Shown: piece after piece, positions 18,144-50,314 of the stretch | Layout of the letters: every line of letters starts with the position of its first letter | Position numbering within the stretch: the stretch's first letter is position 1 | Virus record (IMG/VR): IMGVR_UViG_3300032291_003166 | Strand: one strand, 5' to 3' | DNA length: 64,000 nt | DNA from: a virus | Taxonomy: Duplodnaviria; Heunggongvirae; Uroviricota; Caudoviricetes | Made by a program: the position numbers and the translations under genes | Notes under the pieces: model-generated | What the model saw: the letters and a program-made list of their open reading frames with translations, nothing else | The model's database searches: none | Told to the model about the DNA's origin: nothing

Positions 18144-19274
18144 CTAATGACTATCGCCGATATTGTTTTTTTCACCATATATCAAATAATCAGGATTGAT
18201 CACTTTAGCGATCTTACTACGTTCACCTGATATATGTTTAATCACAATTCCTTCTTCAGGTACTTTAGTTCCTGGAATAAAATTATTAAAAGTGAATTTA
18301 TCTTGTACTTCTTGATCCCATAAACCAGTATATAAAATATCTACATAAGGTAAGTTTAAAAAATAATTAAGAGCAATATGTGTATCACCAGTGTCCATAT
18401 AACCATTATCTAACTTAATATCAAATGCTTTAAATTCAATATCTGATAAACCATAATCATATCCTTTTTGAATACCAGGACCATAAATTTCTCCATAAAT
18501 TATTATCCCATCTCCAATATAGTTAGAACCTCTATCTTTAACATAAGACCATAATTTATTTTTAATATTATATTGTTCAGCAGCTGTTCTCCAAACATCA
18601 GTTGAATAAAAACCTTGTGAGTCAGATCCTTTTTCAACGTTATGAGAACCATAAACATATTCATAGTCAATCCATTCATCAGCTAATCTAATAAATTTCT
18701 TTAATTTATCTATAAAAGATAATTTAGTTTTCTTAACAATACCATAACGAGCATTAGTACCATGAATTTTACGAGTAATCTCTACAACATCATCTTCATT
18801 AAACATTCCGTCAACATTCTTTAAATTAGGAAATTTATAATAAACATGAAAGTGAGGATTATCTTGATATCTAATTTTACGTCCTGAAGCTAATTGAATT
18901 TGTTTAACTGGTGGTTCGTATTTGAATATATTCATTACACCCATCATATCTTTACCTTCTTTTATTTCTGAAGGAAATAATCCTGATTTTGATGTTGGAA
19001 TTAATAAGCATTCAGAATATACACCTCTTAATTTAACAGTACGTACACGTCCACCTTTACGTAAATAATTAGTCACATTTAATTCATCTGATAATTGTTC
19101 AGGGATAACAGCATCTGTGGTTGCTACTATTACTAAACTTCCCTCAACATATTGATCTTTAGGGATGATACAAGTCCATCCATTTACAACTGCTAATTCT
19201 ATTTTATCAGCACCTTCAATTGGTTTGATTTCTTTGATTTTGCCTATAAAGCAAACTGAGTTATTATTTTCCAT
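18144..19274 (-). CDS. RNA ligase (Rnl2-like nucleotidyltransferase)
   Basis: Motif I KIHGTN and motif IV EGIVIKH, a covalent nucleotidyltransferase ligase layout. Confidence 0.55.
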   Translation of the reverse strand: MENNNSVCFIGKIKEIKPIEGADKIELAVVNGWTCIIPKDQYVEGSLVIVATTDAVIPEQLSDELNVTNYLRKGGRVRTVKLRGVYSECLLIPTSKSGLFPSEIKEGKDMMGVMNIFKYEPPVKQIQLASGRKIRYQDNPHFHVYYKFPNLKNVDGMFNEDDVVEITRKIHGTNARYGIVKKTKLSFIDKLKKFIRLADEWIDYEYVYGSHNVEKGSDSQGFYSTDVWRTAAEQYNIKNKLWSYVKDRGSNYIGDGIIIYGEIYGPGIQKGYDYGLSDIEFKAFDIKLDNGYMDTGDTHIALNYFLNLPYVDILYTGLWDQEVQDKFTFNNFIPGTKVPEEGIVIKHISGERSKIAKVINPDYLIYGEKNNIGDSH

Positions 19275-19277
19275 ATT

Positions 19278-19877
19278 TTAATTTAAACTATTTGGGTAAT
19301 ATAATAATGTAGGATTTTTCTTCTGAATATCCACATCTGGGTAATATTTTTTAAACTCCATTACATCAAATTTAGAAGTTATTAAATGACATCCAACTTT
19401 AGTAGGAATTATAGTTTCAATTTTATTTCCTTCAGGTTTTAAACTATTAATCAAATTAATTATATGTTTTGGTCCTTCAATAAAGATATTATCCACATCT
19501 ACAATCCAACGTTTCTCAAGTGTTTTCATTTGTCCAACGATTGAATCAAATAGATTTTGTTGTTTATGTTGTCCACTTTTAATTCGTTGAGCCAGATCCA
19601 CTAACATATTTAAGGATACGTCTTTATGACTTTGTTTTTGAACGTGAATATATGCTCGTGCTTTAAACATTTCGCATAACTGAATAATTTCATCATAACG
19701 TTTTTCTAATTGTTCGATACTAGCAATACAATATGAACGTATAGTTCTTACTGATTGATGATTATCTTTTTCACCTTCAGGTTGATCCTTTTTACGTTTA
19801 AAAATGTAAAGCATATAGAAATCATCTTCATCCTCAAAGTTGAGTAATGGCTTTATTAATTCTAAATTGTCTATCAT
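19278..19877 (-). CDS. hypothetical protein in RNA-repair cassette
   Basis: 199 aa ORF between the ligase and kinase genes. Confidence 0.45.
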   Translation of the reverse strand: MIDNLELIKPLLNFEDEDDFYMLYIFKRKKDQPEGEKDNHQSVRTIRSYCIASIEQLEKRYDEIIQLCEMFKARAYIHVQKQSHKDVSLNMLVDLAQRIKSGQHKQQNLFDSIVGQMKTLEKRWIVDVDNIFIEGPKHIINLINSLKPEGNKIETIIPTKVGCHLITSKFDVMEFKKYYPDVDIQKKNPTLLYYPNSLN

Positions 19878-20257
19878 AACTTTATATTGAATCGATTTTT
19901 CATTTTAATTAAGGTTTCATCTGGTACATTATGTTGGTTTATACCACCATGTCTGTTCTCTACAATTAATGAATGTACTCTATAACCATACTTCTCAGCC
20001 ATCTCAAAATAAGGCTTCATTTCTCTCTCAGTTGTAAACGTATTTGATACAATTACTCTTTCAAAGTCATTTCTCATATATGAATCAACTATACTTTGAC
20101 ACCAAAGGTGTGCATCTTTTAATTTAGAAGCATCAAATTTATATTCATCATCTTCCATAAAATATTGATCAGCTTCAGCTGTTATTCTACCTATTGATTT
20201 TGCTAATGTTGATTTACCACTACCCGGTAATCCTCTTAATAATATTAATTCTTTCAT
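19874..20257 (-). CDS. P-loop kinase, polynucleotide 5'-kinase-like
   Basis: MKELILLRGLPGSGKSTLAKS Walker A at the N-terminus. Size and context resemble the T4 Pnk kinase domain. Confidence 0.5.
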   Translation of the reverse strand: MKELILLRGLPGSGKSTLAKSIGRITAEADQYFMEDDEYKFDASKLKDAHLWCQSIVDSYMRNDFERVIVSNTFTTEREMKPYFEMAEKYGYRVHSLIVENRHGGINQHNVPDETLIKMKNRFNIKL

Positions 20258-20697
20258 ACAGTATGTTCTATTTGTACTCTAACACAGTTTTGAGGTAATC
20301 TATTTATATGTCTGTAATTATTAATATAACCCATAATATTAGCACTACCAATTGCATTTGCTGAATGTGTATAAACATCAACAACTGGTTTTCCTTCCAT
20401 CCATTGTTCTACTAACCATTTAGCACAATCATATCCTGTCTTCTCAGTAATATTATTATAATTTAATTCGTAGTTATGATATACATTTTTATGCCATTCA
20501 GCCATAGCACTATCTCCTAAATCATGGTCTAATGAAATAACATCAATATTTTCTAAACCAACCTCATTTACTTTGGCTACAAACTCATCATAATTTCTTA
20601 CAACAGTCCATTCTTCAATCCCATGAATCCATTCATTATTTGGACTTAATGGTGTGCGTACATCATCTAAATAAATTCTATATCTAGTATTTCCCAT
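20254..20697 (-). CDS. hypothetical protein in RNA-repair cassette
   Basis: 147 aa ORF. Confidence 0.45.
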   Translation of the reverse strand: MGNTRYRIYLDDVRTPLSPNNEWIHGIEEWTVVRNYDEFVAKVNEVGLENIDVISLDHDLGDSAMAEWHKNVYHNYELNYNNITEKTGYDCAKWLVEQWMEGKPVVDVYTHSANAIGSANIMGYINNYRHINRLPQNCVRVQIEHTV

Positions 20698-20698
20698 A

Positions 20699-21367
20699 TT
20701 ATTGTTCTCCTTTTAATCTTTCTTCGTGGTGGTCGGAAGGTAATATATTTGCTTTAATAGGCCTAGTTTTTAGTAAACTAATTACTTCCTCCATTGAGTA
20801 AGGTGTTAAAGCATTTCCATCCATCCCTACATCCATTGATCTTCCACTCATTATTTTCTTATTTTTAGGTAAATGAACATGACCAAATAAATGATATCTT
20901 CCATTATTCATATCATGCCAACTACATAGTGGATAATGATCAACTACAAACTCAACTTTATTTTCACCTTTATGGTTATACACAGTTAAGACTTCATATT
21001 GGAAAGTTTGAGTAAAAATATCTTGAATATTTTGTCTATTATTCTGGATATGATGATCATGGTTTCCATAAGCTAGATAAATGTTACGACAAATTATTCT
21101 ATCTCTAAATTCTTTAATTGATTCAAAACCCCCAAATGACCAGTCACCTAAGTGAATTAAGATATCATCCTGCATAACAAGTCTATTGATGTTATCAACA
21201 ATGGCATCATTCATATGTTCTAATGTTTGAAAATCTCTTGTTTGGTCAACAGGAATTTCTCCATCTTGAGTTCTCCAATTAGTAACTCCTCTACAAATGT
21301 TTTTGTGATTATAATGTGTGTCTGAAGTAAAGAATAGCTTTTGGCCTTTTTCTAATTTTATTTTCAT
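20699..21367 (-). CDS. calcineurin-like metallophosphoesterase (candidate 2',3'-phosphatase of RNA repair)
   Basis: DxH (SDTHYNH), GD (HLGDW) and GNHD (YGNHDHH) motifs. Confidence 0.6.
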   Translation of the reverse strand: MKIKLEKGQKLFFTSDTHYNHKNICRGVTNWRTQDGEIPVDQTRDFQTLEHMNDAIVDNINRLVMQDDILIHLGDWSFGGFESIKEFRDRIICRNIYLAYGNHDHHIQNNRQNIQDIFTQTFQYEVLTVYNHKGENKVEFVVDHYPLCSWHDMNNGRYHLFGHVHLPKNKKIMSGRSMDVGMDGNALTPYSMEEVISLLKTRPIKANILPSDHHEERLKGEQ

Positions 21368-22339: not shown

Positions 22340-22352
22340 ATTAATTCTTTAG

Positions 22353-22426
22353 TGGACCCTGCTGGGCTCGAACCAGCGACCCACAGATTATGAGTCTGTT
22401 GCTCTAACCAACTGAGCTAAGGGTCC
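22353..22426 (-). tRNA. tRNA-Met (anticodon CAT)
   Basis: Minus-strand sequence GGACCCTTAGCTCAGTTGGTTAGAGCAACAGACTCATAATCTGTGGGTCGCTGGTTCGAGCCCAGCAGGGTCCA folds as a perfect cloverleaf: 7-bp acceptor GGACCCT/AGGGTCC, D-arm GCTC..GAGC, anticodon loop CTCATAA, T-arm GCTGG-TTCGAGC-CCAGC. Confidence 0.9.
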
Positions 22427-23786: not shown

Positions 23787-23822
23787 TTAATATATTTAAA
23801 TATAACAAACTAGTCGCGGTTA
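23787..23822 (-). promoter_or_regulatory. promoter-like element, variant A (GGTTA variant box inside a GCGGTT-AAACCGC palindrome)
   Basis: Upstream of 23579-23767. Confidence 0.55.
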
Positions 23823-24239
23823 AACCGCAACTTCTTCATTCATAACAAACGCTTTTGAAGCCCATGTTTTAGCATTAACTGCTTTATATTGTTCCTGGCT
23901 ATACAAATTGGTGTTAAAATATAACTGATTGATAACACCAACCTCCAAACCTAATAACATATCCTCATCAATCATGATAACCTTTTTACCATTACGAGCA
24001 AAAACATTCAACCAAACATTACTATCTTCTGCTTTAAACTCAACAGTCTGTAAAGCACCTTTTTTATAACTACCTAATACAGCTGATGGATTGTTTGAGT
24101 AGTACTCATTATAACGTGGATCAACATCAACACAAGTTAACATACCGGACTGAGTTTTAACAATTGTTCTAAATTTACCTTTACGACCTTTAATAAATTC
24201 TACTGTGTTGATCTTTGTTGTGTTTATTACTTTTTTCAT
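23820..24239 (-). CDS. hypothetical protein
   Basis: 139 aa ORF behind a promoter-motif copy. Confidence 0.5.
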   Translation of the reverse strand: MKKVINTTKINTVEFIKGRKGKFRTIVKTQSGMLTCVDVDPRYNEYYSNNPSAVLGSYKKGALQTVEFKAEDSNVWLNVFARNGKKVIMIDEDMLLGLEVGVINQLYFNTNLYSQEQYKAVNAKTWASKAFVMNEEVAV

Positions 24240-24257
24240 AACCTTTATTTCTTATTT

Positions 24258-24294
24258 TTTCTTATATAATAAAGATACTAAGGCAGCCCGGGTC
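24258..24294 (-). promoter_or_regulatory. promoter-like element, variant B
   Basis: Upstream of 23820-24239. Box is CCCGGGTCA. Confidence 0.6.
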
Positions 24295-24402
24295 AACCAA
24301 CGATATGTATATATATCATCCGTATTAAAAAATCTATAAGAAACTCTTCTTGCGATCCCGATAACTTGTGCGCAAATGGGTAATTCGCGGTTTATAGAGC
24401 AG

Positions 24403-24588
24403 CTATTTGAGCTGGTGTCTATCTAATAAACATTTGGGACATTCCTTATCTTTATTGATAGGAGTACAACAAACAGGACATATGTGATCTACTTCATTCA
24501 TAGTATTAAATATTATATACGTATATATGCCATCGACGCAAAAGATCGTTTTCGATCGGAGAACACATATCATCTTTTTACGGGTCAA
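24403..24588 (-). CDS. small zinc-finger protein (4 Cys)
   Basis: CPVCC...CPKC. The real start may be the internal Met (MNEVDH...). Confidence 0.35.
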   Translation of the reverse strand: MTRKKMICVLRSKTIFCVDGIYTYIIFNTMNEVDHICPVCCTPINKDKECPKCLLDRHQLK

Positions 24589-24602
24589 CCACTCACGTCG
24601 AT

Positions 24603-24700
24603 GGACCTCTATTACCGGGGGGCCTCTAACATCCTTGAACCTCTAAGGCCCGGGATCTTTTTTTACCCCCCTTTAGCCTTTTTAATCTTGCACCTCTAAC
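24603..24700. repeat. four direct copies of CCTCTA(A) (17-, 17- and 53-nt spacing) in a GC-enriched intergenic segment
   Basis: ggaCCTCTAtta, ggCCTCTAAcat, aaCCTCTAAggc, caCCTCTAAcaa, interspersed with CCGGGGGG, CCCGGG and CCCCCC. Confidence 0.5.
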
Positions 24701-24930
24701 AACTCGTCGTCGTTATTTAAATCTAACGCATCATTGTAAATTCCACCATCGACATCAGCTATTAACGAGTCGAGTTCCGATATAGCCGATTCCAATTTAG
24801 AGGTCACGTTATGATAGCTATCCTCTATTAATTGCTGGTTATCTGTATTACGCAGTTCATCATCCAGGTTAGTATATAGTTCCTGTAGTTCCGCTTTAAT
24901 TTCGTTTAGGTATTGAGTTAGTTCATCCAT
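24682..24930 (-). CDS. small acidic hypothetical protein
   Basis: 82 aa ORF, strongly acidic. Confidence 0.45.
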   Translation of the reverse strand: MDELTQYLNEIKAELQELYTNLDDELRNTDNQQLIEDSYHNVTSKLESAISELDSLIADVDGGIYNDALDLNNDDELLEVQD

Positions 24931-25166
24931 TGTATTATAGTTTAATTGTTGTACTTAATCCTAATACACAAAATGTAAATCCATCTACACCATGTGCGAA
25001 ATATAGTATAGGAAAGTGCCTATAATTACTTTTACTAATGTAGCCAAATTTATAGCTAAATTTAATACCACGTGTTGTTTTCATAATTTTAATTTTTAAT
25101 ATAAATACTATCAATAATGGCTTTTAAAACTCATCCCATCCGGGGTAAAGAAACTAGGCCAATTAG

Positions 25167-25196
25167 TTTTTGCTGTAGTCAGGACAGGAATCGAAC
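25167..25196 (-). other. tRNA-like 3' fragment (T-arm ACAGG-TTCGATT-CCTGT plus acceptor-like CCTGACT-A) without a recognisable 5' half
   Basis: Minus strand reads ...GTAACAGGTTCGATTCCTGTCCTGACTACAGCA. The complementary AGTCAGG is found only ~140 nt upstream, at + 25302-25308. Confidence 0.3.
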
Positions 25197-25490
25197 CTGT
25201 TACATTAGCTTCACTTGGTTTCCTATCTTTTGCAGGTTTTAAAATATCTCAGATTGTCGCCCTACTCATATTTTATTATACCGCTACTGTATTTCCGCCA
25301 CCTGACTATATATCATTGGGAGGTTAAGTCCGCGGTTGTTACTCACTCACTATCCGGACCACCGGAGCAGCTTAACCTATTACATCATATACTATTGCAA
25401 TATGATAACCGTTTTATTATTAAGGAATTATAACCGACTATTTCTATTAATGGCAGACTCACCTCGGTTTAATTTTTTTAACTTCCTTAT

Positions 25491-25595
25491 TTAATTATCT
25501 TTATTTTTTAATTCATCAATCTTGTTACTTAAATTGTTATAACTAAGTATAATAAACACCATGTTTACTACTAATAAAAATGCTAATACTGCCAT
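25491..25595 (-). CDS. small hydrophobic peptide (34 aa), paralog of the peptide at 28088-28237, not in ORF track
   Basis: Manual translation MAVLAFLLVVNMVFIILSYNNLSNKIDELKNKDN, preceded by cataatttt... and a promoter-motif copy. Confidence 0.4.
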   Translation of the reverse strand: MAVLAFLLVVNMVFIILSYNNLSNKIDELKNKDN

Positions 25596-25620
25596 AATTT
25601 TTTATTTAATTTTTTTAACT

Positions 25621-25656
25621 TCCTATATATTAAATATAACTACCCTACCCGGGTCA
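25621..25656 (-). promoter_or_regulatory. promoter-like element, variant A, followed (upstream) by a GC-rich hairpin
   Basis: Upstream of the small peptide gene 25491-25595. Box is CCCGGGTCA. Confidence 0.55.
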
Positions 25657-25663
25657 TCCAATC

Positions 25664-25689
25664 GTGCACTTCCGCGGGTGGGAGGCGCA
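25664..25689. repeat. GC-rich hairpin repeat, copy 1 (gtgcacttccgcgggtgggaggcgca)
   Basis: Near-identical to copy 2. Each sits immediately upstream of a CCCGGGTCA promoter box. Confidence 0.55.
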
Positions 25690-25755
25690 TGTTTTCCTCT
25701 CCCAAACCTCCCCCCGCGCGGTTTTTATGGCGCGGTTTCCCTCCGCGTGTTATTT

Positions 25756-25971
25756 TTATGCGGCTTTTATCTCCACCGTTTTATTCTCCAATTCCTCTTT
25801 CTCCACTGAAATATAATATGTACTGTTGTCTGTGTTTTTACATATGAACACATGTTTACCTGATGCGCTATCTGTACCTAAATAAATACCTACGTGGTAA
25901 GTTGTTGTACCGTCTTCATATTTGCGTTTGATGTTGTAATTGTTTTTAATAACTAATTCCATAACCTGCAT
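25756..25971 (-). CDS. small hypothetical protein
   Basis: 71 aa ORF. A second ATG at 25960-25962 sits in the conserved cataacct context. Confidence 0.45.
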   Translation of the reverse strand: MQVMELVIKNNYNIKRKYEDGTTTYHVGIYLGTDSASGKHVFICKNTDNSTYYISVEKEELENKTVEIKAA

Positions 25972-26010
25972 TTCTTATTATATATAAATATAACAACCCA
26001 ACCCGGGTCA
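25972..26010 (-). promoter_or_regulatory. promoter-like element, variant A/B hybrid, followed (upstream) by a GC-rich hairpin
   Basis: Upstream of 25756-25971. Box is CCCGGGTCA. Confidence 0.55.
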
Positions 26011-26023
26011 CCCTAGCAGGATC

Positions 26024-26047
26024 GCGCACTCCCGCGGGTGGGAGCGC
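26024..26047. repeat. GC-rich hairpin repeat, copy 2 (gcgcactcccgcgggtgggagcgc)
   Basis: CTCCC-gcggg-TGGGAG stem-loop extended by GCG/CGC. Confidence 0.55.
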
Positions 26048-26306
26048 AATATTTTTTAATCCCAGCGCGTTGACCCGCAATATATCTGTATATAGGTCCC
26101 CTCTTTGTAGGGAGGCTTGGCCTCCGGCGCAAGGGGTGAACGTACCCACATCTCGCCACCACCCACACTTACACTACCGATCACATACCATCACACACTC
26201 ACACTTATATATAAACGCTATAACAACGCTTTACTAACCGGCTTGTCACCCACCGGCACCGTTTATCATCCATCACAGTAGTCGTTTATATCGCCGCTAT
26301 GTCGTC

Positions 26307-26513
26307 TTACTTGCCCGCCGTTTGGATGTAATCGTTTATATATTTTATCGTATTCTCGACCCTATACACTCGTCCACTCACCATGTATATATCTACATAG
26401 CTTGACTTTGCGTCTCCATTTCCGTCACGTACGATATGTGCTTCCATTGTCTCGATGTTGGACTCGTTTAGCCATATCGATCTGTCTTGTTGGTACTTAG
26501 TTAGTTCTATCAT
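26307..26513 (-). CDS. small hypothetical protein in GC-elevated segment
   Basis: 68 aa ORF. Local composition differs from the rest of the window. Confidence 0.4.
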   Translation of the reverse strand: MIELTKYQQDRSIWLNESNIETMEAHIVRDGNGDAKSSYVDIYMVSGRVYRVENTIKYINDYIQTAGK

Positions 26514-26971: not shown

Positions 26972-28078
26972 TTATTTCTTTTTAAATTGTTCAAACCATT
27001 CTTTAGGTAATACAGGTATTTTAAGTGTTTTTTCTGCAGAGCACATTAAACAATAATCAGAATATTCAATCATATCTTCCTCACTATACAGTATTTTAGG
27101 TTTTGGTTCAGTAAATGGTACTGCACTAAAGTGAAAATTTCCATTTGATATCTTATAACCAATATAGGCAAATAACTTCCCATTTTTATCAGGTTTTATT
27201 GCGAATACTTCTATGTTTGTAGCATCAGGCGGAACTATTATTTGACTTCTTTCTGCTTGCAATTTAGCTCCATTAATAAATCCTTTTTTATATATTGTCC
27301 TATCAGTTTTATTTATATCCCATTCTTGCTGCGGATAATTACATCCGTCATCAACTCTAAACTCTTCTGGATACTTTTCTAATGACAATCTTTCAGCAGC
27401 TTCTTCAAGTGTTTCTTGTTTAAATTGCTCTAATTTAGTATCAAACTCTTCAATATTATCATTGATTAAATCAATATGTTGTTTAGGTTCTTCTTTTAGA
27501 ACTCTGATAAAACACCCACAATTATGTCCTGAACTATCTAAGAAACAACCATTGTTATTATTTCCTTTGCATTCTCCAATGTATTCGTATTTGTGTTTAG
27601 GTTCTTGTATTGGAAACTTTTCATCTAATTCTTTAATGAATTCTTCCATAGTCACTGTTGGTAGCTGTTTTGGAATGCTGATTTTATAAGTATATCTTCC
27701 TTCCCAATATTGATATTTAACATCAACCCACTCACAACTTGGATTCTTAATAAACCATTCAAGAAACTCATCATCAATAGTTTGTACACCATCTTTGATT
27801 AAGTCTTGGTCTGTTGTTAGGATGATTTTTTTGCAAAAATTTGGGTTAGGTTTAAAAGTGTGTTTAGTTATAATATGAACATCTCCTGCTGCATCTATAT
27901 GATAAAAAGCTCCGTTATCAAATATTGAACTATCATAAGGTAATTTTTCATCAGAAGTGATGTAGATGTGTTGGTCTATTAGACCTTTTACTTCTGTTTC
28001 TTTAAAAAAGTATAATTGATTTACAAATTTACTTAACCTACTTGGTTTATCCGTTGGTATTAAATGAATGTTTTTCAT
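26972..28078 (-). CDS. hypothetical Cys-rich protein
   Basis: 368 aa with Cys clusters GECKGNNNNGCFLDSSGHNCGC and CLMC. Confidence 0.5.
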   Translation of the reverse strand: MKNIHLIPTDKPSRLSKFVNQLYFFKETEVKGLIDQHIYITSDEKLPYDSSIFDNGAFYHIDAAGDVHIITKHTFKPNPNFCKKIILTTDQDLIKDGVQTIDDEFLEWFIKNPSCEWVDVKYQYWEGRYTYKISIPKQLPTVTMEEFIKELDEKFPIQEPKHKYEYIGECKGNNNNGCFLDSSGHNCGCFIRVLKEEPKQHIDLINDNIEEFDTKLEQFKQETLEEAAERLSLEKYPEEFRVDDGCNYPQQEWDINKTDRTIYKKGFINGAKLQAERSQIIVPPDATNIEVFAIKPDKNGKLFAYIGYKISNGNFHFSAVPFTEPKPKILYSEEDMIEYSDYCLMCSAEKTLKIPVLPKEWFEQFKKK

Positions 28079-28087
28079 AACCTTTAT

Positions 28088-28237
28088 TTATAATTTTATA
28101 TCTATATCCTTACTATCAATTTTCCTCTTCAATTCTGTAATTTTATCTAAAATAACTTTTTGATATCCTGATATAATAAAGAAAAACATTATATTAAGGA
28201 AAATGCTTACTACTAATAAAAATGCTAATGCTGTCAT
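28088..28237 (-). CDS. small hydrophobic peptide (49 aa), paralog of the peptide at 25491-25595, not in ORF track
   Basis: Manual translation MTALAFLLVVSIFLNIMFFFIISGYQKVILDKITELKRKIDSKDIDIKL. Start sits in the cataacctttattt context behind a promoter-motif copy. Confidence 0.45.
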   Translation of the reverse strand: MTALAFLLVVSIFLNIMFFFIISGYQKVILDKITELKRKIDSKDIDIKL

Positions 28238-28285: not shown

Positions 28286-28536
28286 TTATTTATTTTGTAT
28301 GTCTGGTCATATACCCTATCCCATTCCATATCGTACCTATGTTTTGTTCCTTCATCTAAATCATCATATATGTTCTCCATAAAGTACTTGTCCATTCTAT
28401 AAGCGATTTGCAAGTGAATTAAGTATGACTGGCAATAGTGGCCGTCCGGGGCTTGAGTACACATTAATGGACTACAGCATCCTTCCTCACCACATGCACT
28501 ACAAGCCGGACAATACGGACTATACTTTTCTTCCAT
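28273..28536 (-). CDS. small Cys-rich protein
   Basis: 87 aa with CPACSACGEEGCC. Confidence 0.4.
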   Translation of the reverse strand: MEEKYSPYCPACSACGEEGCCSPLMCTQAPDGHYCQSYLIHLQIAYRMDKYFMENIYDDLDEGTKHRYDMEWDRVYDQTYKINNDPD

Positions 28537-37505: not shown

Positions 37506-37541
37506 TTAATATAATTAAATATATGTAACTGATTGGGGTCA
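37506..37541 (-). promoter_or_regulatory. promoter-like element, variant A
   Basis: Upstream of 37068-37493. Confidence 0.6.
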
Positions 37542-38243
37542 ACTATGTTTCCATATATACCCATGAGCTGTTTTTTGCTTTCCACTACAACATGATGATA
37601 TATCTCCACTGTTGATTCCTAATTCTTTAGATGCTGTTTTTAAGGAAGGCCAATGTTTTATTACATTCATATTTAAATCGTATTGTATTATTGGTTTTAA
37701 TCCTTTATCTATTTTATTTTCACTTATTTTTAAGACGTGTTCTTTAGATAATGTTTTACCTGACTTAGATAAACTTTGTTTTTTCTTCCATTCATCATTT
37801 CTAACCACCCCATAATTACCATGTTCATTTCCTTTCTTAGTAATATTATATTTTTGGCCTTTTTTTCTTATTCTAATTTTTTCTTTAGAATCATCGGAGT
37901 ATTTAGTTCCTAAATTATAATTATTACCTTTTTTAGATTGAGATATTTTATTTTTAGTTAAATCTGAGTGTTTGTCAGGGCCATTTCCTCCACTATTTTT
38001 ATTATAAAGAGCATAACCTAAATTTTCATAATATTTAATCCATTTTATTTCTAATGGTTTCCAATCAATCGACATAATAGAATCAACCTCTTCAATAACT
38101 TCAAATTTAATATCATTTCCAAATCTACGTTTATGATGATATTTTCTATGAGATATATTTAATGTTTTTCCAATATACACTGTTTTAGGATCATTATTGA
38201 TATTTGAAATTAAATAAATGTATGTCATGATTGTTATTTTCAA
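37539..38243 (-). CDS. GIY-YIG homing endonuclease (I-TevI-like, with NUMOD3 repeats and C-terminal HTH)
   Basis: YIYLISN...VYIGKT GIY-YIG core, followed by repeated K/S-rich NUMOD3-like units (SQSKKG, SKEKIRIRKKG, SKSGKT). Confidence 0.7.
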   Translation of the reverse strand: MKITIMTYIYLISNINNDPKTVYIGKTLNISHRKYHHKRRFGNDIKFEVIEEVDSIMSIDWKPLEIKWIKYYENLGYALYNKNSGGNGPDKHSDLTKNKISQSKKGNNYNLGTKYSDDSKEKIRIRKKGQKYNITKKGNEHGNYGVVRNDEWKKKQSLSKSGKTLSKEHVLKISENKIDKGLKPIIQYDLNMNVIKHWPSLKTASKELGINSGDISSCCSGKQKTAHGYIWKHS

Positions 38244-38277
38244 TAAATATATAAATTCCTACATTCCTGTCAAGAAT

Positions 38278-39354
38278 TTACTCATAACTATCTCTATCAA
38301 TATTGATCACCTTAGGAAAGCGAGGAACTTTATCTTCTGTTAATTCGAAATATTTGACAGTTGCTTTCTTCCCAATTAATTCATCTCTTTGATTCCATAA
38401 TTCAGTTAAATATTCCCAGGTTCCATTAACAGCAGAATCAAATGGTTTACCATTAATATTAAATTTAAGTTTACCAATTTTTGAACTTAAATTACCTTTT
38501 CCTTCTTCATAACCTAATATTTTAAATTCAGCATCATTAAATGTTTTATATTTTAATAATGATTTAGAACGTTTGTTTTCATAATTTGAATCCGTTCTTA
38601 ATATTTGTCCTTCATATCCGTCAGCCATATAATCAAAATAATAAGCTGATATATCATTCTCATTATCTACTTGTTCTGTTTTAACAACCTGGCATGTTGT
38701 AGGTAAAGATAAACTATTTAATACTCTAAAACGATCAACAAATGTCTTATCAACACTTGGTATATCATAGATATGATATTCAATACACTCAGCACTTAAT
38801 ATTAAATCTTCTGATGTTGGTTTTGTTTTACGAACACATGATATAATTTTATTAAAATCAGCTACATCCTTACTAGCATATAATTCTCCATCTAATATTA
38901 AATCTGGATTTGATTTAAGTAATGGTTTTAGTGATTCAAATATATGAGGTGCAGATATAATTCGTTTACCATTACGTGTCCACATACCATCTTCTTTAAC
39001 AATACATCTAATACCATCTAATTTAGGTTGAGTAAAGATTGGATATTTAATTTTATGTTTATAATCATTATAATCATGAGCTAACATTGGTTTAAAATAA
39101 ACTGGTGTGTCTATTTTATTTATATCTTCCCAATATCCTAACTCAGTACGTTTACGAAACATTGCGTCTGCTTCTCTAACTGCTTGTTCATTAGATGAAT
39201 TATATGATTTGCCTTCGCAACATGTCCATTCTGAAGTAACTTTTTGACCATCTTCAAAACCACTAATTGTTCTGAAGCAATTATCTTTTACTTCAATTCT
39301 CCATGTTGATACTTTACCTGTAACTGATCGCTTATATAAAATTGGATAACTCAT
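38278..39354 (-). CDS. ATP-dependent DNA ligase (T7-like)
   Basis: Motif I KLDGIR and a T7-ligase-like N-terminus. Confidence 0.75.
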   Translation of the reverse strand: MSYPILYKRSVTGKVSTWRIEVKDNCFRTISGFEDGQKVTSEWTCCEGKSYNSSNEQAVREADAMFRKRTELGYWEDINKIDTPVYFKPMLAHDYNDYKHKIKYPIFTQPKLDGIRCIVKEDGMWTRNGKRIISAPHIFESLKPLLKSNPDLILDGELYASKDVADFNKIISCVRKTKPTSEDLILSAECIEYHIYDIPSVDKTFVDRFRVLNSLSLPTTCQVVKTEQVDNENDISAYYFDYMADGYEGQILRTDSNYENKRSKSLLKYKTFNDAEFKILGYEEGKGNLSSKIGKLKFNINGKPFDSAVNGTWEYLTELWNQRDELIGKKATVKYFELTEDKVPRFPKVINIDRDSYE

Positions 39355-40839: not shown

Positions 40840-42024
40840 TTATTTACTATAAATATGAACTAGATTCTGTTCATAAGTATTCATAGCATTAATTTTAATT
40901 TTGAATATATCTAATTCAAATTCTCCTATTTCACCTGATTCAGCTATGATTTCTGGTAGTTGAGTTAATATATTAAATGCATCTTGGTTTAAGTATTGAG
41001 CGTCAAATTCTACTATAATATCTTCTTTAGGGGTATTATATTTTGTTACTTTAATTTTAGATTTTAAATCAACTTTAGTATGAGGTTGTTCATTTTCATA
41101 ATAAGCTGCTTCTAATACTCCCATTTCATCATCAAGGTATATTGTATCACACCATGGTTCTAGAGTTGCTAACATATTTAAATTACAAGTACTAACTACA
41201 AATGCAATATTATATTTGGGAGGTATAATTGGTTTCATAAATGAATCATGTTTTACAAAATGTCCCCACTTACGAATAAAATTTCTAGCATTTTTACTTG
41301 TTGTATGTAACCACTCCTCACTATTCTTACCAGCACTACCTCCAGCATGTTTATTAAATCTACTACCTCGGCTAGTAAAATGATACACTAAAGCATCCCA
41401 TGATTGAATTACTTTATATCCTTTTAATATAAAACGATTAAATAAATCACTATCCTCTTTAGACTGTGGAGCAAATAATTCATCATGTCCTCCAATAGCT
41501 AAAAAATCATCTTTATACATACACCATGGTGCAAATATACCTTCAGTTACTTTATCTTTATTTAATACTTCATTTTGTGAAGACCATTCATACCAATTAT
41601 CTTTAAACTCATCAGCTTCAATCCCAAAGTCCATAGTTATTTTTTCTGGTCCTGAAGGATGTAATGGTGGTTCAACCCTAGTAGCACTTACTACTATACC
41701 TGGTTTTAGATGTTTTAAAATATTACTATCTAAATTAGGTGAAGCAACCATATCAGCATGAAAAGCAAATATAATATCTGTTCGAGCCATTTCAATCCCT
41801 TTATCAAACATTCCTACTATACCAATACGTTCTGGGCCTGGATTGTGATATGTTATTAAATCGTTGTCATCTAGTTGTTTAATCCAATCTTGTGTGCCGT
41901 CTACACTCGCGTCATCTAAAACTAATATTTCATGTTTAGTTTTTAAATTACGAATTGATTTATAAGCTAATTGTAAAAATTCTAAATTGTTTCTACTTGG
42001 TAATACAAATGTTATTTTTTGCAT
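40840..42024 (-). CDS. family-2 glycosyltransferase
   Basis: VLPSRN...LVLDDASVDGT, a GT-A DxD signature. Confidence 0.65.
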   Translation of the reverse strand: MQKITFVLPSRNNLEFLQLAYKSIRNLKTKHEILVLDDASVDGTQDWIKQLDDNDLITYHNPGPERIGIVGMFDKGIEMARTDIIFAFHADMVASPNLDSNILKHLKPGIVVSATRVEPPLHPSGPEKITMDFGIEADEFKDNWYEWSSQNEVLNKDKVTEGIFAPWCMYKDDFLAIGGHDELFAPQSKEDSDLFNRFILKGYKVIQSWDALVYHFTSRGSRFNKHAGGSAGKNSEEWLHTTSKNARNFIRKWGHFVKHDSFMKPIIPPKYNIAFVVSTCNLNMLATLEPWCDTIYLDDEMGVLEAAYYENEQPHTKVDLKSKIKVTKYNTPKEDIIVEFDAQYLNQDAFNILTQLPEIIAESGEIGEFELDIFKIKINAMNTYEQNLVHIYSK

Positions 42025-42857
42025 AAATAATTTTTAATATAATCTTCTATATTTAATTTTGGATCCCATCCTAATAATTCTTTAGCTGATGTATCATCAC
42101 ATAATGTGATAAGTGCTTCTCCTGGTTTGTCATCTTTATATATAATTTCTTTACCAAACATATCAGCTATGTCTTTAATAGAATAATTCCATCCTCTACC
42201 TAGTTCGAATATATGTCCCCATTTCTGCTTCTCCAAAATTAAAGTTAAAGCATCTACAATATCATCAACATGAGTAAAATCTCTACGTTTTGTACCATCA
42301 CCATATATTGTTAATGGTTTATTTTTTTCAATACATTTTTCCCAAGCACCGATTAAAGTAGTATAACCGCCTTCTTTTAAATGGTATGGACCATAAACAT
42401 TATAAAATCTAGCTATTGAAGCATTAAGGTTAAAATGTGTTTGATATAGATAAATTATTTCCTCACCTATATCTTTACTAAATGTATACGGATTTTTAAA
42501 TTTGCCTGAATGGTGAGATGAACTACCCGCGTATATTAATGGTATATTATTCTCTGAACAATATTTAGCTAATTTAAAAGTAGCATTAGCGTTAGTTGTA
42601 AAGTAACTATATGGATCTTCAAATGATGGTTGTATTCTAGCTATAGCTGCTAAATGATATATTACATCTGGTTTCCAGTATGAATAATCATCTATATTTC
42701 TAATATCAAAATTAATATACTCTGCTCCATCCTGATGGTTTGATTTTAAACCAGTGTTGTAATTATCTAATGACACTACATCATAACCTTTACTTAATAA
42801 TTTTTTAATTAAATTAGTTCCTATAAAACCCGCTCCACCTGTAACTAATATTTTCAT
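42012..42857 (-). CDS. NAD-dependent nucleotide-sugar epimerase/dehydratase (SDR)
   Basis: MKILVTGGAGFIG Rossmann motif and YTFSK (YxxxK). Confidence 0.65.
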   Translation of the reverse strand: MKILVTGGAGFIGTNLIKKLLSKGYDVVSLDNYNTGLKSNHQDGAEYINFDIRNIDDYSYWKPDVIYHLAAIARIQPSFEDPYSYFTTNANATFKLAKYCSENNIPLIYAGSSSHHSGKFKNPYTFSKDIGEEIIYLYQTHFNLNASIARFYNVYGPYHLKEGGYTTLIGAWEKCIEKNKPLTIYGDGTKRRDFTHVDDIVDALTLILEKQKWGHIFELGRGWNYSIKDIADMFGKEIIYKDDKPGEALITLCDDTSAKELLGWDPKLNIEDYIKNYLCKK

Positions 42858-43741
42858 ATATATTGTTGAATTAAATCATTATAACGTTTAGCTGTTTGTT
42901 TTGGACTTAAATATTCTTTAATATTTTTCATATTATCTCTATAGTAGTTAATTTGATTCATATTCATTCCTCTAATCCAATCCATTTTATTTCTGAATTC
43001 ATCTTCATTATTGATATAAAATTCATAAGACTCACCTACTATATCTACTACTGATTCTTCTCTACTGGTTAATAATATTGATTCAAAACAAGATGCTACA
43101 GCTAATTTAGTACATGGTTTATAAAAATAATCTAATGTATTGTTTTCTCTAAAACTACTATGAATATTGTATTTAGTATGTTGATCATTACCATTTACTG
43201 TATTATCAAATACATCTACATATCCAATTAATTTATTTTTATCTAATTGGAATCCATTTAATCCTCCTATATAAGAAGCTATTTTAGTATTAGTAATATT
43301 TGGTGTTAGTAAATCTTCATTATCTATATCCCATTGGTGAGGAATAACAATATGTTTAACATTAATTAAATATTCTTCTGCTTTAATTTTAGAATATGAA
43401 TTAGTATGTATGATAACATCTAAATAGCTATAATAATCAATTAAATCACTATTATAAAATATATTAGTATGATTAAAGCAAAAATTATCTATCACATCGT
43501 ATATTAAAACATTATTATTTTTACTTAATGTTTCTAACATTTGATGATTTACTATATGTAAAGGCTCACCTACAAAAACTATTATATAATTTTTAATATC
43601 ATTAATTGTTTTTAAAAATGTATCACGTAACACATAAGGTATTTTTATATCATTATATTTTTCTAATGCTTGTACTGTTTGTAAGCCTCTCATCTTACAA
43701 GCCCCAGATGTACTATGTCCTACAAAAACTACATTTCTCAT
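42854..43741 (-). CDS. hypothetical protein in glycosylation island
   Basis: 295 aa ORF. Confidence 0.45.
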   Translation of the reverse strand: MRNVVFVGHSTSGACKMRGLQTVQALEKYNDIKIPYVLRDTFLKTINDIKNYIIVFVGEPLHIVNHQMLETLSKNNNVLIYDVIDNFCFNHTNIFYNSDLIDYYSYLDVIIHTNSYSKIKAEEYLINVKHIVIPHQWDIDNEDLLTPNITNTKIASYIGGLNGFQLDKNKLIGYVDVFDNTVNGNDQHTKYNIHSSFRENNTLDYFYKPCTKLAVASCFESILLTSREESVVDIVGESYEFYINNEDEFRNKMDWIRGMNMNQINYYRDNMKNIKEYLSPKQTAKRYNDLIQQYI

Positions 43742-44415
43742 AACTCATTAAATAATTTATATTCTAATTCAAAATTATCTTTTAAATATAAAAGTATATT
43801 TTTAAAATTTAAATAATTTTCTTCAGTCCAATTATTTTTATTGTGTTCTCCCCATATATGAGATTGAAAATAAATAGTGTTATTAATTATAGTTACAGAT
43901 TCATCATTATGAATTGAACTTTCACCCTGAAATATTTTATTATTTACTTTTATATTATTATTAAGGTGAGTATGAATAGCTGTGTATTTAAATACTTCAC
44001 TAACTGCATCAAAACTACCTTGTGTTGCTAACCAACCTGGCATTCTCCATCCTGTAGGTATATGACCTGCTTGAGTCCATTCATTTAAACTATCTTGTAA
44101 TCTATCTTTAGCTTGATTATAATCTAATTCTATAAATTCACATTCCCTACAACCTGGATCTACAACTGTACGTTTATGATAATGACCATGTCCTGCTAAT
44201 TCAATCCAATCATATTGTAACCAATATTGTATCCAATCTTTATGTTGTGATAAAGGAAATTTATCATGATAATTTGAAGGTGTAAATAAAACAAATTTAC
44301 ATCCAAATTCTTTATTTAGTTCTTTTAAATATTCTACTGATTGATCACCTTCACATCCCCAATTTTGTTCTGGGTGAGTATCATCAATAGCAATTATTAT
44401 ATCTAATTTATTCAT
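43738..44415 (-). CDS. hypothetical protein in glycosylation island (His-cluster, possible hydrolase/deacetylase)
   Basis: 225 aa with HGHYH. Confidence 0.3.
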   Translation of the reverse strand: MNKLDIIIAIDDTHPEQNWGCEGDQSVEYLKELNKEFGCKFVLFTPSNYHDKFPLSQHKDWIQYWLQYDWIELAGHGHYHKRTVVDPGCRECEFIELDYNQAKDRLQDSLNEWTQAGHIPTGWRMPGWLATQGSFDAVSEVFKYTAIHTHLNNNIKVNNKIFQGESSIHNDESVTIINNTIYFQSHIWGEHNKNNWTEENYLNFKNILLYLKDNFELEYKLFNEL

Positions 44416-45362
44416 AGTGAATTAAAATAATTTTCCATTTTGATTAAGAATTGATTTTCACTAATTAAATTTCTATAATTACCTCTAGCATCAATAGAAC
44501 ATTCTTTATAGAACGATTCATTATTTTTTAATTCAATAGCTAATTTTCTAGCTGATTCTAAATCACCTAAACCAACACTTAATTTAGGATGTATTTTTCT
44601 TTGAGTATCAGCTTCATTATACCCAATACATGGTATACCTAAAAAACCACAGTTCATAGCAAATGTACCAGCTGCTATTGTAGGCATTAAGTGTATAGCA
44701 TATTTAAACTCTGCTAAAGCATAAATCCATTCATTCCATTGTAAATAAGGTAAATGAGTCACTAATTGTTCTTCATTTGGTTGTTTACGACCCATACTAG
44801 GACAATATATAGGTAAATCAAATTCAGTAGCAACAACATAACTATCAAAGCCACCATACCATCTAGTAAAATTACCTCCAACTATAACTTTATCTTGTTT
44901 TTCAATTAATCTAGCATTTAAAACACTATCCTCAACCATTAATGAAGGTATATCTTGAATTGGTATTTTAGGATTAATACCTTTAAAATAAGGTATATCA
45001 GTTTCATTTTCAGTTAATATACCATCTACATTAGTCAATAAATTATAATGCCATATTTGCTGATGTACTGGTAAGTCTTGATAAATCCAACTTGGACCTT
45101 CTTGCATAAATAACACTTTATCAGCTATTTTTCTTGCTTCAGTTACTACATCTATTTCATATAATTTATCTCTATCAACAGGAGTTTTAGGTATTAATAA
45201 AATTGCTATATCATATTTTGCTTTTACATTATTAATATTAAATAATGAATAATGATCAGCTTGTAAAGCACACATTTGAGCAAATTCTACTCTCATATTA
45301 TTATGAGTTCTAGGTACTTTGCTAGTGAAATCCATTTGGGATAAAAAAATAATTTTTTTCAT
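44412..45362 (-). CDS. hypothetical protein in glycosylation island (possible GT-B-like)
   Basis: 316 aa ORF. Confidence 0.35.
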   Translation of the reverse strand: MKKIIFLSQMDFTSKVPRTHNNMRVEFAQMCALQADHYSLFNINNVKAKYDIAILLIPKTPVDRDKLYEIDVVTEARKIADKVLFMQEGPSWIYQDLPVHQQIWHYNLLTNVDGILTENETDIPYFKGINPKIPIQDIPSLMVEDSVLNARLIEKQDKVIVGGNFTRWYGGFDSYVVATEFDLPIYCPSMGRKQPNEEQLVTHLPYLQWNEWIYALAEFKYAIHLMPTIAAGTFAMNCGFLGIPCIGYNEADTQRKIHPKLSVGLGDLESARKLAIELKNNESFYKECSIDARGNYRNLISENQFLIKMENYFNSL

Positions 45363-45991
45363 TTTATTTCATTTAAGGGCATTTTATTACTATCATCTAA
45401 AGTTAATAATAATTTATCATTATCGTTGATTTGAGGATGCCATTCTTTAAAAGATAATTTTAATTCTTCTAATTTTTCAAATATAGCATCTTGTTTATAA
45501 CCTAAATATTTTATAATATATTCTCTAGGAAATTTATCTAAATGCCACTCACCCCATAATTCATTAATATAACTTAAAATATTAGTTTGGGTTAAGTGAT
45601 ATAATACATCATACTCAGCTCCTTCAATATCTAATTTTAATATAATATAATCATCTGAGTTAAAGTTATTTTTTATAAATTCTGATAAATCTATTGATTT
45701 GACTTCATTATATAAATTTTGATCGATTTTTCTATCTGATTTTTCTAAATATAAAGTTGAAGCATCACTCCATTCAGTTGAAATATATATTTTAACTATA
45801 TCTTCTTTATCCCATACAGCATTATTATATAAATGAACTTTAGAATCATTACTCCATTTATCAATTAATTTATCATATAATATAGGTACAGCTTCAAAGG
45901 AATATATTTCAATATCAGAACCAAATTGTTTTTTAGCTCCAACTATTGATTGCCCTCTATTTGCTCCACAGTCTAAAAATATTTTTCTCAT
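45359..45991 (-). CDS. FkbM-family methyltransferase
   Basis: MRKIFLDCGANRGQS N-terminal motif typical of FkbM methyltransferases. Confidence 0.5.
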   Translation of the reverse strand: MRKIFLDCGANRGQSIVGAKKQFGSDIEIYSFEAVPILYDKLIDKWSNDSKVHLYNNAVWDKEDIVKIYISTEWSDASTLYLEKSDRKIDQNLYNEVKSIDLSEFIKNNFNSDDYIILKLDIEGAEYDVLYHLTQTNILSYINELWGEWHLDKFPREYIIKYLGYKQDAIFEKLEELKLSFKEWHPQINDNDKLLLTLDDSNKMPLNEIK

Positions 45992-47986: not shown

Positions 47987-48590
47987 AATAATTATTTTGA
48001 TGTTCTTGTTTTTCTATTGATTTATGATGTTTTATACAATAAATTTCATCTGTTGGTAGTAATGTATAATTTTTATGCCCAGTTATAACCTCATGAACTT
48101 TACTAGCCCAATTTATTTTAGGAGAGTTTTGTAATATACGAGTTTGATAATCTGGAAAATTGATCCATCCTTTTTCATTTATACTCCATCTCCATTTAGT
48201 TATGTGATTTTGAGTTAAACCATCTACTGTATTAATTCTAGGGACTAAAAATAAATCAACTGTTGGATTTTCTTGTAATAGTAAATGTATAGATTGAATA
48301 AATTCTTCATCCAATAACTCATCAGCATCAATCTGATAAATCCAATCTCCATTACAATGTTGTTTTAAATTATTTTTAAATGAAGAAAAATTAGCATTAA
48401 GTGGAAATTCAATAACCTTTATTTGTCCTTCATATTTTCTTAAAACTGAATATACTTCTTGAGTAGTGTTACCTTGATCACATTGAACTACTATCTCATC
48501 TTCTGATCTTTTAAACTTAGTAAGCTGAGTTAGTAGTTTATCTATTTCTAGATGTTCAATACAAACAGGTATAGCGTAACTGATTATCAT
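47973..48590 (-). CDS. small GT-A-like glycosyltransferase
   Basis: IDADELLDEE DxD-like motif in 205 aa. Confidence 0.35.
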   Translation of the reverse strand: MIISYAIPVCIEHLEIDKLLTQLTKFKRSEDEIVVQCDQGNTTQEVYSVLRKYEGQIKVIEFPLNANFSSFKNNLKQHCNGDWIYQIDADELLDEEFIQSIHLLLQENPTVDLFLVPRINTVDGLTQNHITKWRWSINEKGWINFPDYQTRILQNSPKINWASKVHEVITGHKNYTLLPTDEIYCIKHHKSIEKQEHQNNYYDTI

Positions 48591-48595
48591 ATTTT

Positions 48596-50307: not shown

Positions 50308-50314
50308 AACTATA

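Follow-up and report, generated by a model that had tools for sequence, protein, structure and literature searches.

What is encoded in the GC-rich interval at positions 24240-26150 of the IMG/VR record IMGVR_UViG_3300032291_003166, a member of the Caudoviricetes? We addressed this question in a stretch of 64,000 nucleotides (nt) of the record, here called the window. An original prediction described the interval as a non-coding regulatory hub with hairpin repeats fused to promoter boxes. The fused units are accurately described, since the boxes belong to a larger family and the hairpin-plus-promoter units are kept in relatives. The interval contains conserved non-coding modules, but it is not purely non-coding; it is a mosaic of such modules with exchangeable small genes. 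In the reading that we favor and consider probable, a shuffling region resembling the PeSL regions of T4-type phages is combined with a dedicated transcription unit for a transfer RNA (tRNA)-like RNA. The interval would then be a hyperplastic accessory region with all genes transcribed on the minus strand, and its GC-rich non-coding blocks would be conserved functional modules of three kinds: stem-loop/promoter cassettes, a non-coding unit that yields the tRNA-like RNA, and an operator array. The argument draws on direct observation of sequence anatomy, promoter-family statistics, conservation, the swapping of open reading frames (ORFs) and RNA cores, and the distribution of an RNA family across databases.

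Read on the minus strand, the GGTCA box of the original prediction is TGACC, and the pattern TGACC-N13-TAnnTTTA occurs 16 times in the window, always on the minus strand, against 0.10 copies expected by chance. An ATG follows every copy at a distance of 35-60 nt, mostly in the context AAATAAAGGTTATG. These features indicate that the boxes are members of a real, strand-specific phage promoter family, with predicted promoter activity. Neither plus-strand genes nor plus-strand members of the family were found in the window, and a scan for sigma-70 consensus promoters showed no enrichment (34 found, 39.6 expected). The TAnnTTTA element resembles the Bacteroidota -7 box, TAnnTTTG, and relatives of the phage group encode a sigma-70-family protein. 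Within the window, 15 of the 16 copies fall between 14 and 40 kb, and a glycosyltransferase cluster (GT1, GT2) at 40840-51760 on the minus strand carries none.

The extended form of the box, CCCGGGTCA, is present on the plus strand at 24287, 25648 and 26002, as had been predicted apart from a one-nucleotide shift of the first (24286), and at 36174, a fourth copy that had been overlooked. Allowing one mismatch yields 6 matches against 1.16 expected, a number reached in 0 of 100 shuffles. The CCCGGG extension marks a four-member subgroup of the promoter family. In relatives it reads CCCGGA, CCTGGA or CCTGGG, so the palindrome itself is not constrained, and of the predicted composite element the box is retained while the extension is not.

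Two of these promoters are preceded by the paralogous GC hairpins that the original prediction had noticed. A 44-nt direct repeat (25661-25704 and 26021-26064, 75% identity) ties stem-loops C and D together as paralogues, and the cassette units to which they belong measure approximately 85 nt each (26064-25981 and 25704-25620). Their core, CCACCCGCGG, occurs within the window only in these two stem-loops (0 expected) and is invariant in 6 copies from the window and its relatives. The GC stem predicted at 25714-25735 is present at that place. A further predicted hairpin, GAGGC-TTG-GCCTC, exists at 26112-26124, 13 nt away from the predicted 26125-26137; its minus-strand form, GGAGGC-CAA-GCCTCC, is found in the related contigs L345 and L346 and is absent from the L343, L347 and L348 lineage, and so it is lineage-specific. 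Early promoters of the N4-type virion RNA polymerase carry a conserved 5-7 bp stem with a 3-nt loop. GGAGGC-CAA-GCCTCC has this shape, but its single copy and its absence from the L343/L347/L348 lineage led us to reject such a promoter. A hairpin pattern scan of IMG/VR gave no match.

The conservation pattern was obtained from syntenic contigs (L343-L348) reached through homologues of the 68-aa gene at 26513..26307 (Table 1). Non-coding modules are 92-100% identical to L345, compared with 76-89% for the flanking genes. In the L343 lineage, nc1, island A and the inverted-repeat block again exceed the genes (81-82%), and the stem-loop of L343 carries one compensatory change, from C-G to U-A. The elements nc2, nc3 and the outer helices are not conserved in this lineage. 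Island C is kept without a single change in L345 despite a different upstream ORF. Apart from the tRNA-Met gene, all non-coding GC islands of the window lie in this part, at 24.5-26.3 kb. Relatives found through the 139-aa and 368-aa proteins were too distant to be used, with neither synteny nor common motifs.

The genes between the modules behave differently. Five small minus-strand ORFs occupy approximately 43% of 24240-26150, which makes the earlier estimate of little coding capacity roughly right, and at least two of them are real genes: the 82-aa ORF has a match to phrog_4068, and a homologue with 60% identity exists for the 71-aa ORF. The space separating cassettes D and C is taken by o71 in the window and, in L345, by an unrelated 73-aa ORF that gives no BLASTP alignment with it. 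A perfect 20-nt direct repeat (25468-25487 and 25605-25624) borders the block containing o34, which is inserted behind promoter C and absent from L345. The cassettes therefore lie at the breakpoints of ORF insertion and replacement. A paralogue of o34 is the 49-aa ORF at 28237..28088 on the minus strand; both encode small membrane peptides with MxxLAFLLVV N termini.

This arrangement, with cassettes upstream of small ORFs and indels or replacements between them, is the pattern of PeSL (promoter-early stem-loop) cassettes. In T4-type phages, these combine a promoter with a G/C stem-loop in hyperplastic regions upstream of ORFans (Arbiol et al. 2010, PMC2839356) and mediate ORF indels and replacements (PMC2839356; Comeau et al. 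2014, PMC4122927). The two units of the window share with them the repeated promoter and G/C-rich stem-loop, polyG/polyC tracts as in island C, the hyperplastic setting, the position directly upstream of small ORFans and the ORF breakpoints within cassettes. They differ in the promoter, which is TGACC-N13-TAnnTTTA and not the sigma-70 consensus, in the position of the stem-loop upstream of the -35-like box, and in its invariant loop/core. In addition, the window holds just two full cassettes, and its phage is unrelated to T4-likes by nucleotide comparison with GenBank phages, which gave no match. We propose that the first module consists of a G/C-rich stem-loop or stem-loop cluster 15-21 nt upstream of a promoter of the family. 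The stem-loop would attenuate or process transcripts arriving from upstream, and from the promoter the following short unit would be transcribed anew. Being repetitive and strongly conserved, the cassettes may in addition provide homology for recombination, by which the intervening small ORFs would be replaced, inserted or deleted. On this reading, the PeSL idea of regulatory cassettes that are also used as recombination sites would reach beyond T4-type phages to an uncultured lineage, unrelated to them and with another type of promoter.

The second module centers on a gene that the original prediction overlooked. Its proposal of a structured non-coding RNA holds for the interval by virtue of this tRNA-like RNA; for the hairpins it had flagged, it is no more than a candidate reading. 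On the minus strand, the element reads AGTCAGG-TGGCGGAAAT...-ACAGGTTCGATTCCTGT-CCTGACT. As in canonical tRNAs, it has an acceptor stem (AGTCAGG/CCTGACT, 7-8 bp) and a T arm with a 5-bp stem and a GTTCRANYC-type loop (ACAGG-TTCGATT-CCTGT), and it retains the discriminator A and C74. The window copy has neither an anticodon stem with a 7-nt loop nor a D arm with G18-G19, and its D region, AAATACAGTAGCGG, does not pair. A consensus fold of two sequences, the window copy and its orthologue in contig L017, comprises an 8-bp acceptor stem, the T arm and a long-range helix, UACAGUAGC/GCUAAUGUA, which stands in place of the D and anticodon arms and encloses a 75-nt domain. The tRNA-like RNA cannot decode codons. 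The Rfam tRNA model assigns the window copy 17.5 bits, below the gathering score of 29 bits, and Rfam searches of the window at gathering and at E<=10 return only tRNA-Met and this sub-threshold match. ARAGORN reports no tRNA for the window copy, even with introns allowed and a lowered threshold.

Three other identities were considered and rejected. A tRNA with an intron was set aside because the anticodons and intron positions that ARAGORN assigns to the family described below are scattered and incoherent, and it assigns none to the window copy. A transfer-messenger RNA (tmRNA) was discounted after a negative ARAGORN tmRNA search and no Rfam match, and an antisense guide because the complementarity of the core to the window is no better than chance.

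The orthologue delimits the element precisely. L017 is an IMG/VR contig of 27.9% GC; the genes that it has in common with the window show 40-67% protein identity and are syntenic with 2-12.7 kb of the window. Positions 11747-11883 of L017 are 93.4% identical to the window element over 137 nt, with the same boundaries, and no other nucleotide match between the genomes comes close to this one. The orthologue is one of five genes with an AGTCAGG...CCTGACT acceptor stem that form an array with interspersed small ORFs at 11541-13101 of L017, in the order tRNA-Lys, a tRNA-like gene, tRNA-Ile, the orthologue and a tRNA-Leu-like gene with an 8-nt loop; the tRNA-Lys and tRNA-Ile have the acceptor and T arm of the orthologue.

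In L345, which is related to the window much more closely than L017, flanks and scaffold are as in the window, and the core measures only 36 nt. The resulting RNA of 72 nt has an 8-nt loop, scores 33 bits and ends in ACCA. Differences in the leader are confined to an internal loop. Promoter C leads straight into this leader in L345, which identifies its target. We propose that the promoter at 25656 drives a non-coding unit of structured leader, tRNA-like RNA and trailer, from which RNase P and the 3′ processing/CCA-adding pathway would excise the tRNA-like RNA as a stable RNA. The central domain, exchanged like a cassette, is probably the part that bears specificity, for example as a decoy or binding module. 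L345 also has an extra 88 nt after the tRNA-like gene (1482-1569) with a remnant 5′ half (AGTCAGATGACGG), and its 3′ extension (ATCGTAAGTAGATCTGACGGCCGCGTAAAGGTGCC) recurs after family members in unrelated IMG/VR contigs (3′ flanks of L058 and L110).

The element belongs to a large family. The 3′ 24-mer of the window copy occurs at more than 119 IMG/VR loci, a lower bound from an exact-match scan, and the loci listed comprise 81 distinct elements of 68-199 nt. The scaffold consists of a 5′ AGTCAGGTGGCGG... and a 3′ ACAGGTTCGATTCCTGTCCTGACT-AC around a non-homologous core. It is present in the window copy, which matches the family exactly over the 3′ 24-mer and over 15 nt at the 5′ end. Most members listed carry the 5′ sequence AGTCAGGTGGCGGAATTGGTAGACGC and a D arm GGCGGAATTGGTAGACGC, after which come 30-150 nt that are unrelated between members and as a rule end in a helix 2 nt before the T arm. 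The GGCGGAATTGGTAGACGC D arm is typical of bacterial tRNA-Leu. A few of the members listed are ordinary tRNAs on the shared acceptor and T arm (Lys-UUU, Pro-UGG, Ile-UAU and class II Leu-UAA), among them L070, a regular class II tRNA-Leu(UAA). The acceptor stem is followed by A-C in 86 of 95 distinct contexts listed, and CCA is encoded in only 3. Many members are located in tRNA arrays.

Core replacement at a fixed locus is seen in three independent IMG/VR groups, in which the flanks are 79-100% identical and the cores 27-58%; one of the groups has the regular tRNA-Leu(UAA) as its alternative allele. Outside IMG/VR, the 24-mer is found in only 2 of 185,579 prokaryotic species genomes, a Bacteroidetes metagenome-assembled genome (MAG) and a 6-kb contig of a Rickettsiaceae MAG. 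The two halves are not found together in any GenBank phage record, no Rfam family covers the scaffold, and literature and sequence-string searches returned no description of the family. Searches of IMG/VR with nc1 and core patterns gave only L017 or nothing. These results suggest an undescribed, essentially phage-restricted family with a tRNA-Leu-type scaffold and exchangeable cores, which is unannotated and mostly missed by standard tRNA finders and Rfam. GC islands of AT-rich phage genomes offer a practical route to such elements. At 17 of the loci listed (including L016, L020, L024, L028 and L042), the element lies immediately upstream of a probable large-terminase gene, called from its N-terminal sequence alone, and at several loci a Bacteroidota-type TAnnTTTG box (TAGTATATTTGCAT) stands directly 5′ of AGTCAGG.

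Known tRNA-like RNAs differ from this family in several respects. Class II tRNA-Leu and phage tRNA arrays share with it the 7-bp acceptor stem, the T arm GGTTCGAWTCC, the discriminator A, the D arm of most members and the location in or near phage tRNA arrays. In contrast to tRNA-Leu, the family is without the 7-nt anticodon loop and places unrelated sequence between the D and T arms, ARAGORN and Rfam fail or score marginally, and the window copy has also lost the D arm. tmRNA similarly builds an acceptor/T-arm domain from both ends around a large non-tRNA insert. The window RNA is much shorter, is of Leu and not Ala type, and has neither G3-U70 nor a conserved tag reading frame. Species 1 and 2 of T4 (rnaC/rnaD) are small stable non-decoding RNAs whose function is not known; their genes neighbor phage tRNA genes, and they are processed by the enzymes that mature tRNAs. 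Their likeness to the tRNA-like RNA is by description only, and they are not known as a scaffold family with exchangeable cores.

YrlA RNAs, the bacterial and phage Y RNAs, mimic the T arm, D arm and acceptor of tRNA, and some are phage-encoded (Chen et al. 2014, PMC4201824). Their ends form a Ro-binding stem, with the "acceptor" closed by a loop in a permuted topology, and they need an Rsr/Ro60 partner (PMC4201824). The window RNA, in contrast, has its ends paired in the acceptor stem, and the proteins that were scanned included no Ro60. An IMG/VR survey listed candidate tRNA-like RNAs with five motifs that overlap ARAGORN tRNA calls (PMC10690425). Its motifs share with our family the data source and the general class, that of non-canonical tRNA-like elements of uncultured phages; the survey describes no tRNA-Leu-type scaffold whose cores are replaced, and the two are set apart by description only.

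We tentatively raise the possibility, to which we give a minor share of our confidence, that the family is a new class of phage RNA. In such a class, the constant top half of a tRNA would recruit host tRNA machinery (RNase P, the CCA-adding enzyme, perhaps LeuRS or EF-Tu) or give stability, and the swapped core would give specificity, for instance as a decoy or inhibitor of host defense nucleases that target tRNAs, or as a module for binding or guiding. Such a role would fit the core swaps at fixed loci, which resemble an arms race, and the nearby RNA-repair genes (Table 1). If the cores are functional, the family would be a natural "tRNA scaffold" system, relevant to phage-host tRNA conflicts and to RNA engineering.

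Several points weigh against the combination of shuffling region and RNA unit. After stem-loops C and D, the gene strand reads GAUUGGA and GAUCCUG, respectively, and lacks the U tract of an intrinsic terminator; T runs adjoin them on the plus strand only. As the sense-strand U tract is absent, termination is proposed by analogy alone, and sequence-specific recognition of the loop is equally possible. Covariation in the stem-loops amounts to one pair, and fold z-scores are modest and alike on both strands (for island C, -2.3 sense and -2.7 antisense), too weak for single-sequence folding to decide the strand. The covariation score of nc1 is matched by 26 of 500 shuffles. The perfect identity of island C could reflect recent recombination and not purifying selection. 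For the RNA, the D arm of the window copy is degenerate and there is one orthologue only; this copy could be decaying or recently transferred. The family was collected by its exact 3′ 24-mer, so the invariance of the 3′ half is by construction. Finally, transcription, promoter activity, termination, RNA ends and processing are inferred from sequence, as is every molecular function proposed here for the RNA, the stem-loops and the TTAGAGG boxes.

Could the GC blocks themselves be the functional RNAs? This alternative, which we regard as rather unlikely, takes nc1 to stem-loop D, island C and island A to be stable sense small RNAs (sRNAs) or RNA elements that act in cis, for example in antitermination or processing, and not terminator/promoter cassettes. 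GC islands mark RNA genes in AT-rich genomes, and here the 60-nt windows that are non-coding and reach 55% GC are limited to the tRNA-Met gene (22350-22418) and five islands of 24.5-26.3 kb; the tRNA-like region is among the places so marked. The block nc1 is conserved as much as or more than its neighboring genes and folds better in sense (-29 kcal/mol) than in antisense (-16 kcal/mol), the sense fold having numerous G-U pairs and one-sided changes compatible with wobble pairing, and the invariant loop of stem-loops C and D is suggestive of sequence-specific recognition. However, Rfam gives no match even at E<=10, the covariation of nc1 is not significant, nc2, nc3 and the outer helices lack conservation in the L343 lineage, and an independent promoter/terminator pair around the blocks is absent. 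An ORF antisense to nc1 was also rejected: it is open by composition only, and most substitutions change an amino acid, without purifying selection.

Island A holds the third module and bears on the question of a replication origin. Its four (T)TAGAGG boxes are conserved in three lineages with variable spacers, and 3 of the 7 TTAGAGG copies in the window lie within 77 nt. The array ends 20 nt upstream of the promoter-like box TTGACC-N13-TATGTGTT, which is bracketed by a 9-bp inverted repeat (CCATCGACG/CGTCGATGG, 24604-24596 and 24538-24530) and followed, after the repeat, by a 14-bp AT palindrome (TATATACGTATATA, 24527-24514). We propose that the boxes form an operator array, that is, binding sites for a phage regulator upstream of the internal TTGACC box. 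The transcription-factor operators of the original prediction are plausible for this feature (24699-24606), which is a different one from those it had named.

As an origin, the main rival of the operator reading but one that we consider unlikely, the TTAGAGG boxes would be iterons for an initiator protein and the inverted repeat with TATATACGTATATA (24604-24514) the unwinding region; nc1, in which ATAAACG motifs recur, would be a second site or stand in for this one. The lambda origin has the order iterons, AT-rich region, palindrome. In the window, the direct repeats are kept in three lineages while their spacers vary, the inverted repeat and AT palindrome follow (91-97%), and nc1 is conserved without convincing RNA covariation. 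Yet the cumulative GC skew falls monotonically through 12-64 kb without an inflection at 24-26 kb, no initiator or helicase gene was identified adjacent to the boxes, their spacing is 17-18 nt and not approximately two helical turns, and their position 20 nt upstream of the TTGACC-N13-TAT box fits an operator array equally well. The origin suggested by the original prediction is hence reduced to a minor rival, and nothing in the analysis speaks for the packaging site that it also named.

It is improbable that the region has no dedicated function, with recent exchange between lineages mimicking conservation and the hairpins and pseudo-tRNA being decaying remnants. The region is visibly mosaic, identities of 99/99 and approximately 100% exceed the usual effect of purifying selection at this divergence, and the window copy has lost D-arm pairing and the G18-G19 motif. 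Against this, the blocks outdo the genes even in the distant L343, L347 and L348 lineage (87-92.5% versus 81-82%), the promoter elements are strand-specific and look functional, and the 81 distinct family members listed keep acceptor stem and T arm around unrelated cores, which random decay would not preserve.

The remaining alternative, that the hairpins serve the plus strand as terminators of antisense transcripts (arising from the AT-rich, nearly palindromic promoter regions) or as antisense sRNA 3′ ends, is the least probable: terminator-like sites with T runs at 25669-25685, 25730-25748 and 25743-25763, TTTCCC after the stem at 25714-25735, AATATTTTTT after stem-loop D and an inverted-repeat arm of L343 in which 3 of 4 changes keep G-U pairs only in plus-strand RNA are offset by the lack of any plus-strand gene or promoter-family member in the window (16 of 16 promoters on the minus strand), by the frequency of T runs at 28% GC and by the nc1 alignment, which penalizes the plus-strand fold with A-C mismatches.

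Table 1. Features of the window discussed in the text, with identities in related contigs L345 and L343 (lineage).
Feature	Position	Strand	Identity, L345	Identity, L343	Details
nc1	26150..26306	-	92%	87%	conserved non-coding block directly 3′ of the 68-aa gene stop codon
Hairpin GGAGGC-CAA-GCCTCC	26110..26125	-			GAGGC-TTG-GCCTC on + strand
Stem-loop D	26020..26054	-	97%	87.5%	GCGC-UCCC / ACCCGC loop / GGGA-(GU)-GCGC; 21 nt upstream of promoter D
Promoter D and 5′ untranslated region	25972..26010	-	94% (promoter)	89% (promoter)	TGACCCGGG-N9-TATATTTA...GGTTATG; promoter-family member
o71 (71 aa)	25756..25971	-			exchangeable small gene between cassettes D and C; 66-aa homologue, 60% identity
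Island C	25657..25755	-	99/99 nt		overlapping G/C stems, including stem-loop C (25660-25694)
Stem CCGCGCGGTTTTTATGGCGCGG	25714-25735				also read CCGCGCGG...GGCGCGG
Promoter C	25605..25656	-			TGACCCGGG-N9-TATATTTA; promoter-family member
Insertion block with o34	25418..25604	-	absent		34-aa membrane-peptide ORF o34 (25595..25491)
Leader of tRNA-like RNA	25310..25417	-	~96%		two hairpins including GGTTAAG...CTTAACC
tRNA-like RNA gene	25307..25177 (block 25175..25309)	-			131 nt; starts AGTCAGG, ends CCTGACT, then A-C
Trailer of tRNA-like RNA	25085..25174	-	98%
o49 (49 aa)	24935..25084	-	absent		in L345, trailer abuts the 82-aa gene homologue
o82 (82 aa)	24682..24930	-	84%	81%	phrog_4068, E=2.4e-5
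(T)TAGAGG boxes, island A	24699-24693, 24646-24640, 24629-24623, 24611-24606	-		92.5% (island A)	four direct boxes in 24606..24699
Inverted-repeat block	24502..24604	-	97%	91%	internal promoter-like box TTGACC-N13-TATGTGTT (24588...)
Zinc-ribbon ORF (32 aa, CxxC...CxxC)	24403..24501	-	replaced		40-nt CA-rich segment in L345
Upstream block and promoter of o139	24240..24402	-	93.5% (block), 98% (promoter)		promoter TTGACCCGGG-N9-TATCTTTA
o139 (139 aa)	24239..23820	-	76%
o68 (68 aa)	26513..26307	-	89%
o93 (3′ part)			82%
o75			81.5%
nc2			96%
nc3			96%
Non-coding GC islands (five)	24578-24675, 25312-25379, 25629-25770, 25981-26193, 26238-26298				60-nt windows >=55% GC
Remaining GC islands (two)	28438-28500, 62146-62303				both coding
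RNA-repair-like set	18144-21367	-			RNA ligase (PF09414), AAA_33 kinase-like, metallophosphatase, cREC_REC

Across the window, GC content per kb ranges from 22 to 39% and is highest at 24-27 kb, and every ORF of at least 150 aa lies on the minus strand. Pfam matches include MoxR/VWA-like proteins, glycosyltransferases, a DNA ligase, a GIY-YIG endonuclease and a lysin; together with the RNA ligase, kinase and phosphatase set, they point to a large phage. A nucleotide search of the region against 50,697 GenBank phages gave no match. The phage is AT-rich and uncultured and probably has a Bacteroidota host.

Other features of the window were observed in passing. Its sole standard tRNA is a canonical tRNA-Met (CAU) at 22352-22426 on the minus strand, which scores 72.7 bits and is 97% identical in L345. 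The RNA-repair-like set, whose members were named from contig labels, lies a few kb downstream of the tRNA-like gene. A 368-aa protein to which no function is assigned (26972-28078, minus strand) has an N-terminal part of approximately 140 aa that recurs in more than 300 IMG/VR contigs. A GIY-YIG/NUMOD homing-endonuclease gene directly adjoins an ATP-dependent DNA ligase gene (37539-39354, minus strand). The strongest GC island of the window (72% GC; 62146-62303, minus strand) encodes an Ala/Pro/Ser-rich low-complexity linker in a 437-aa protein.

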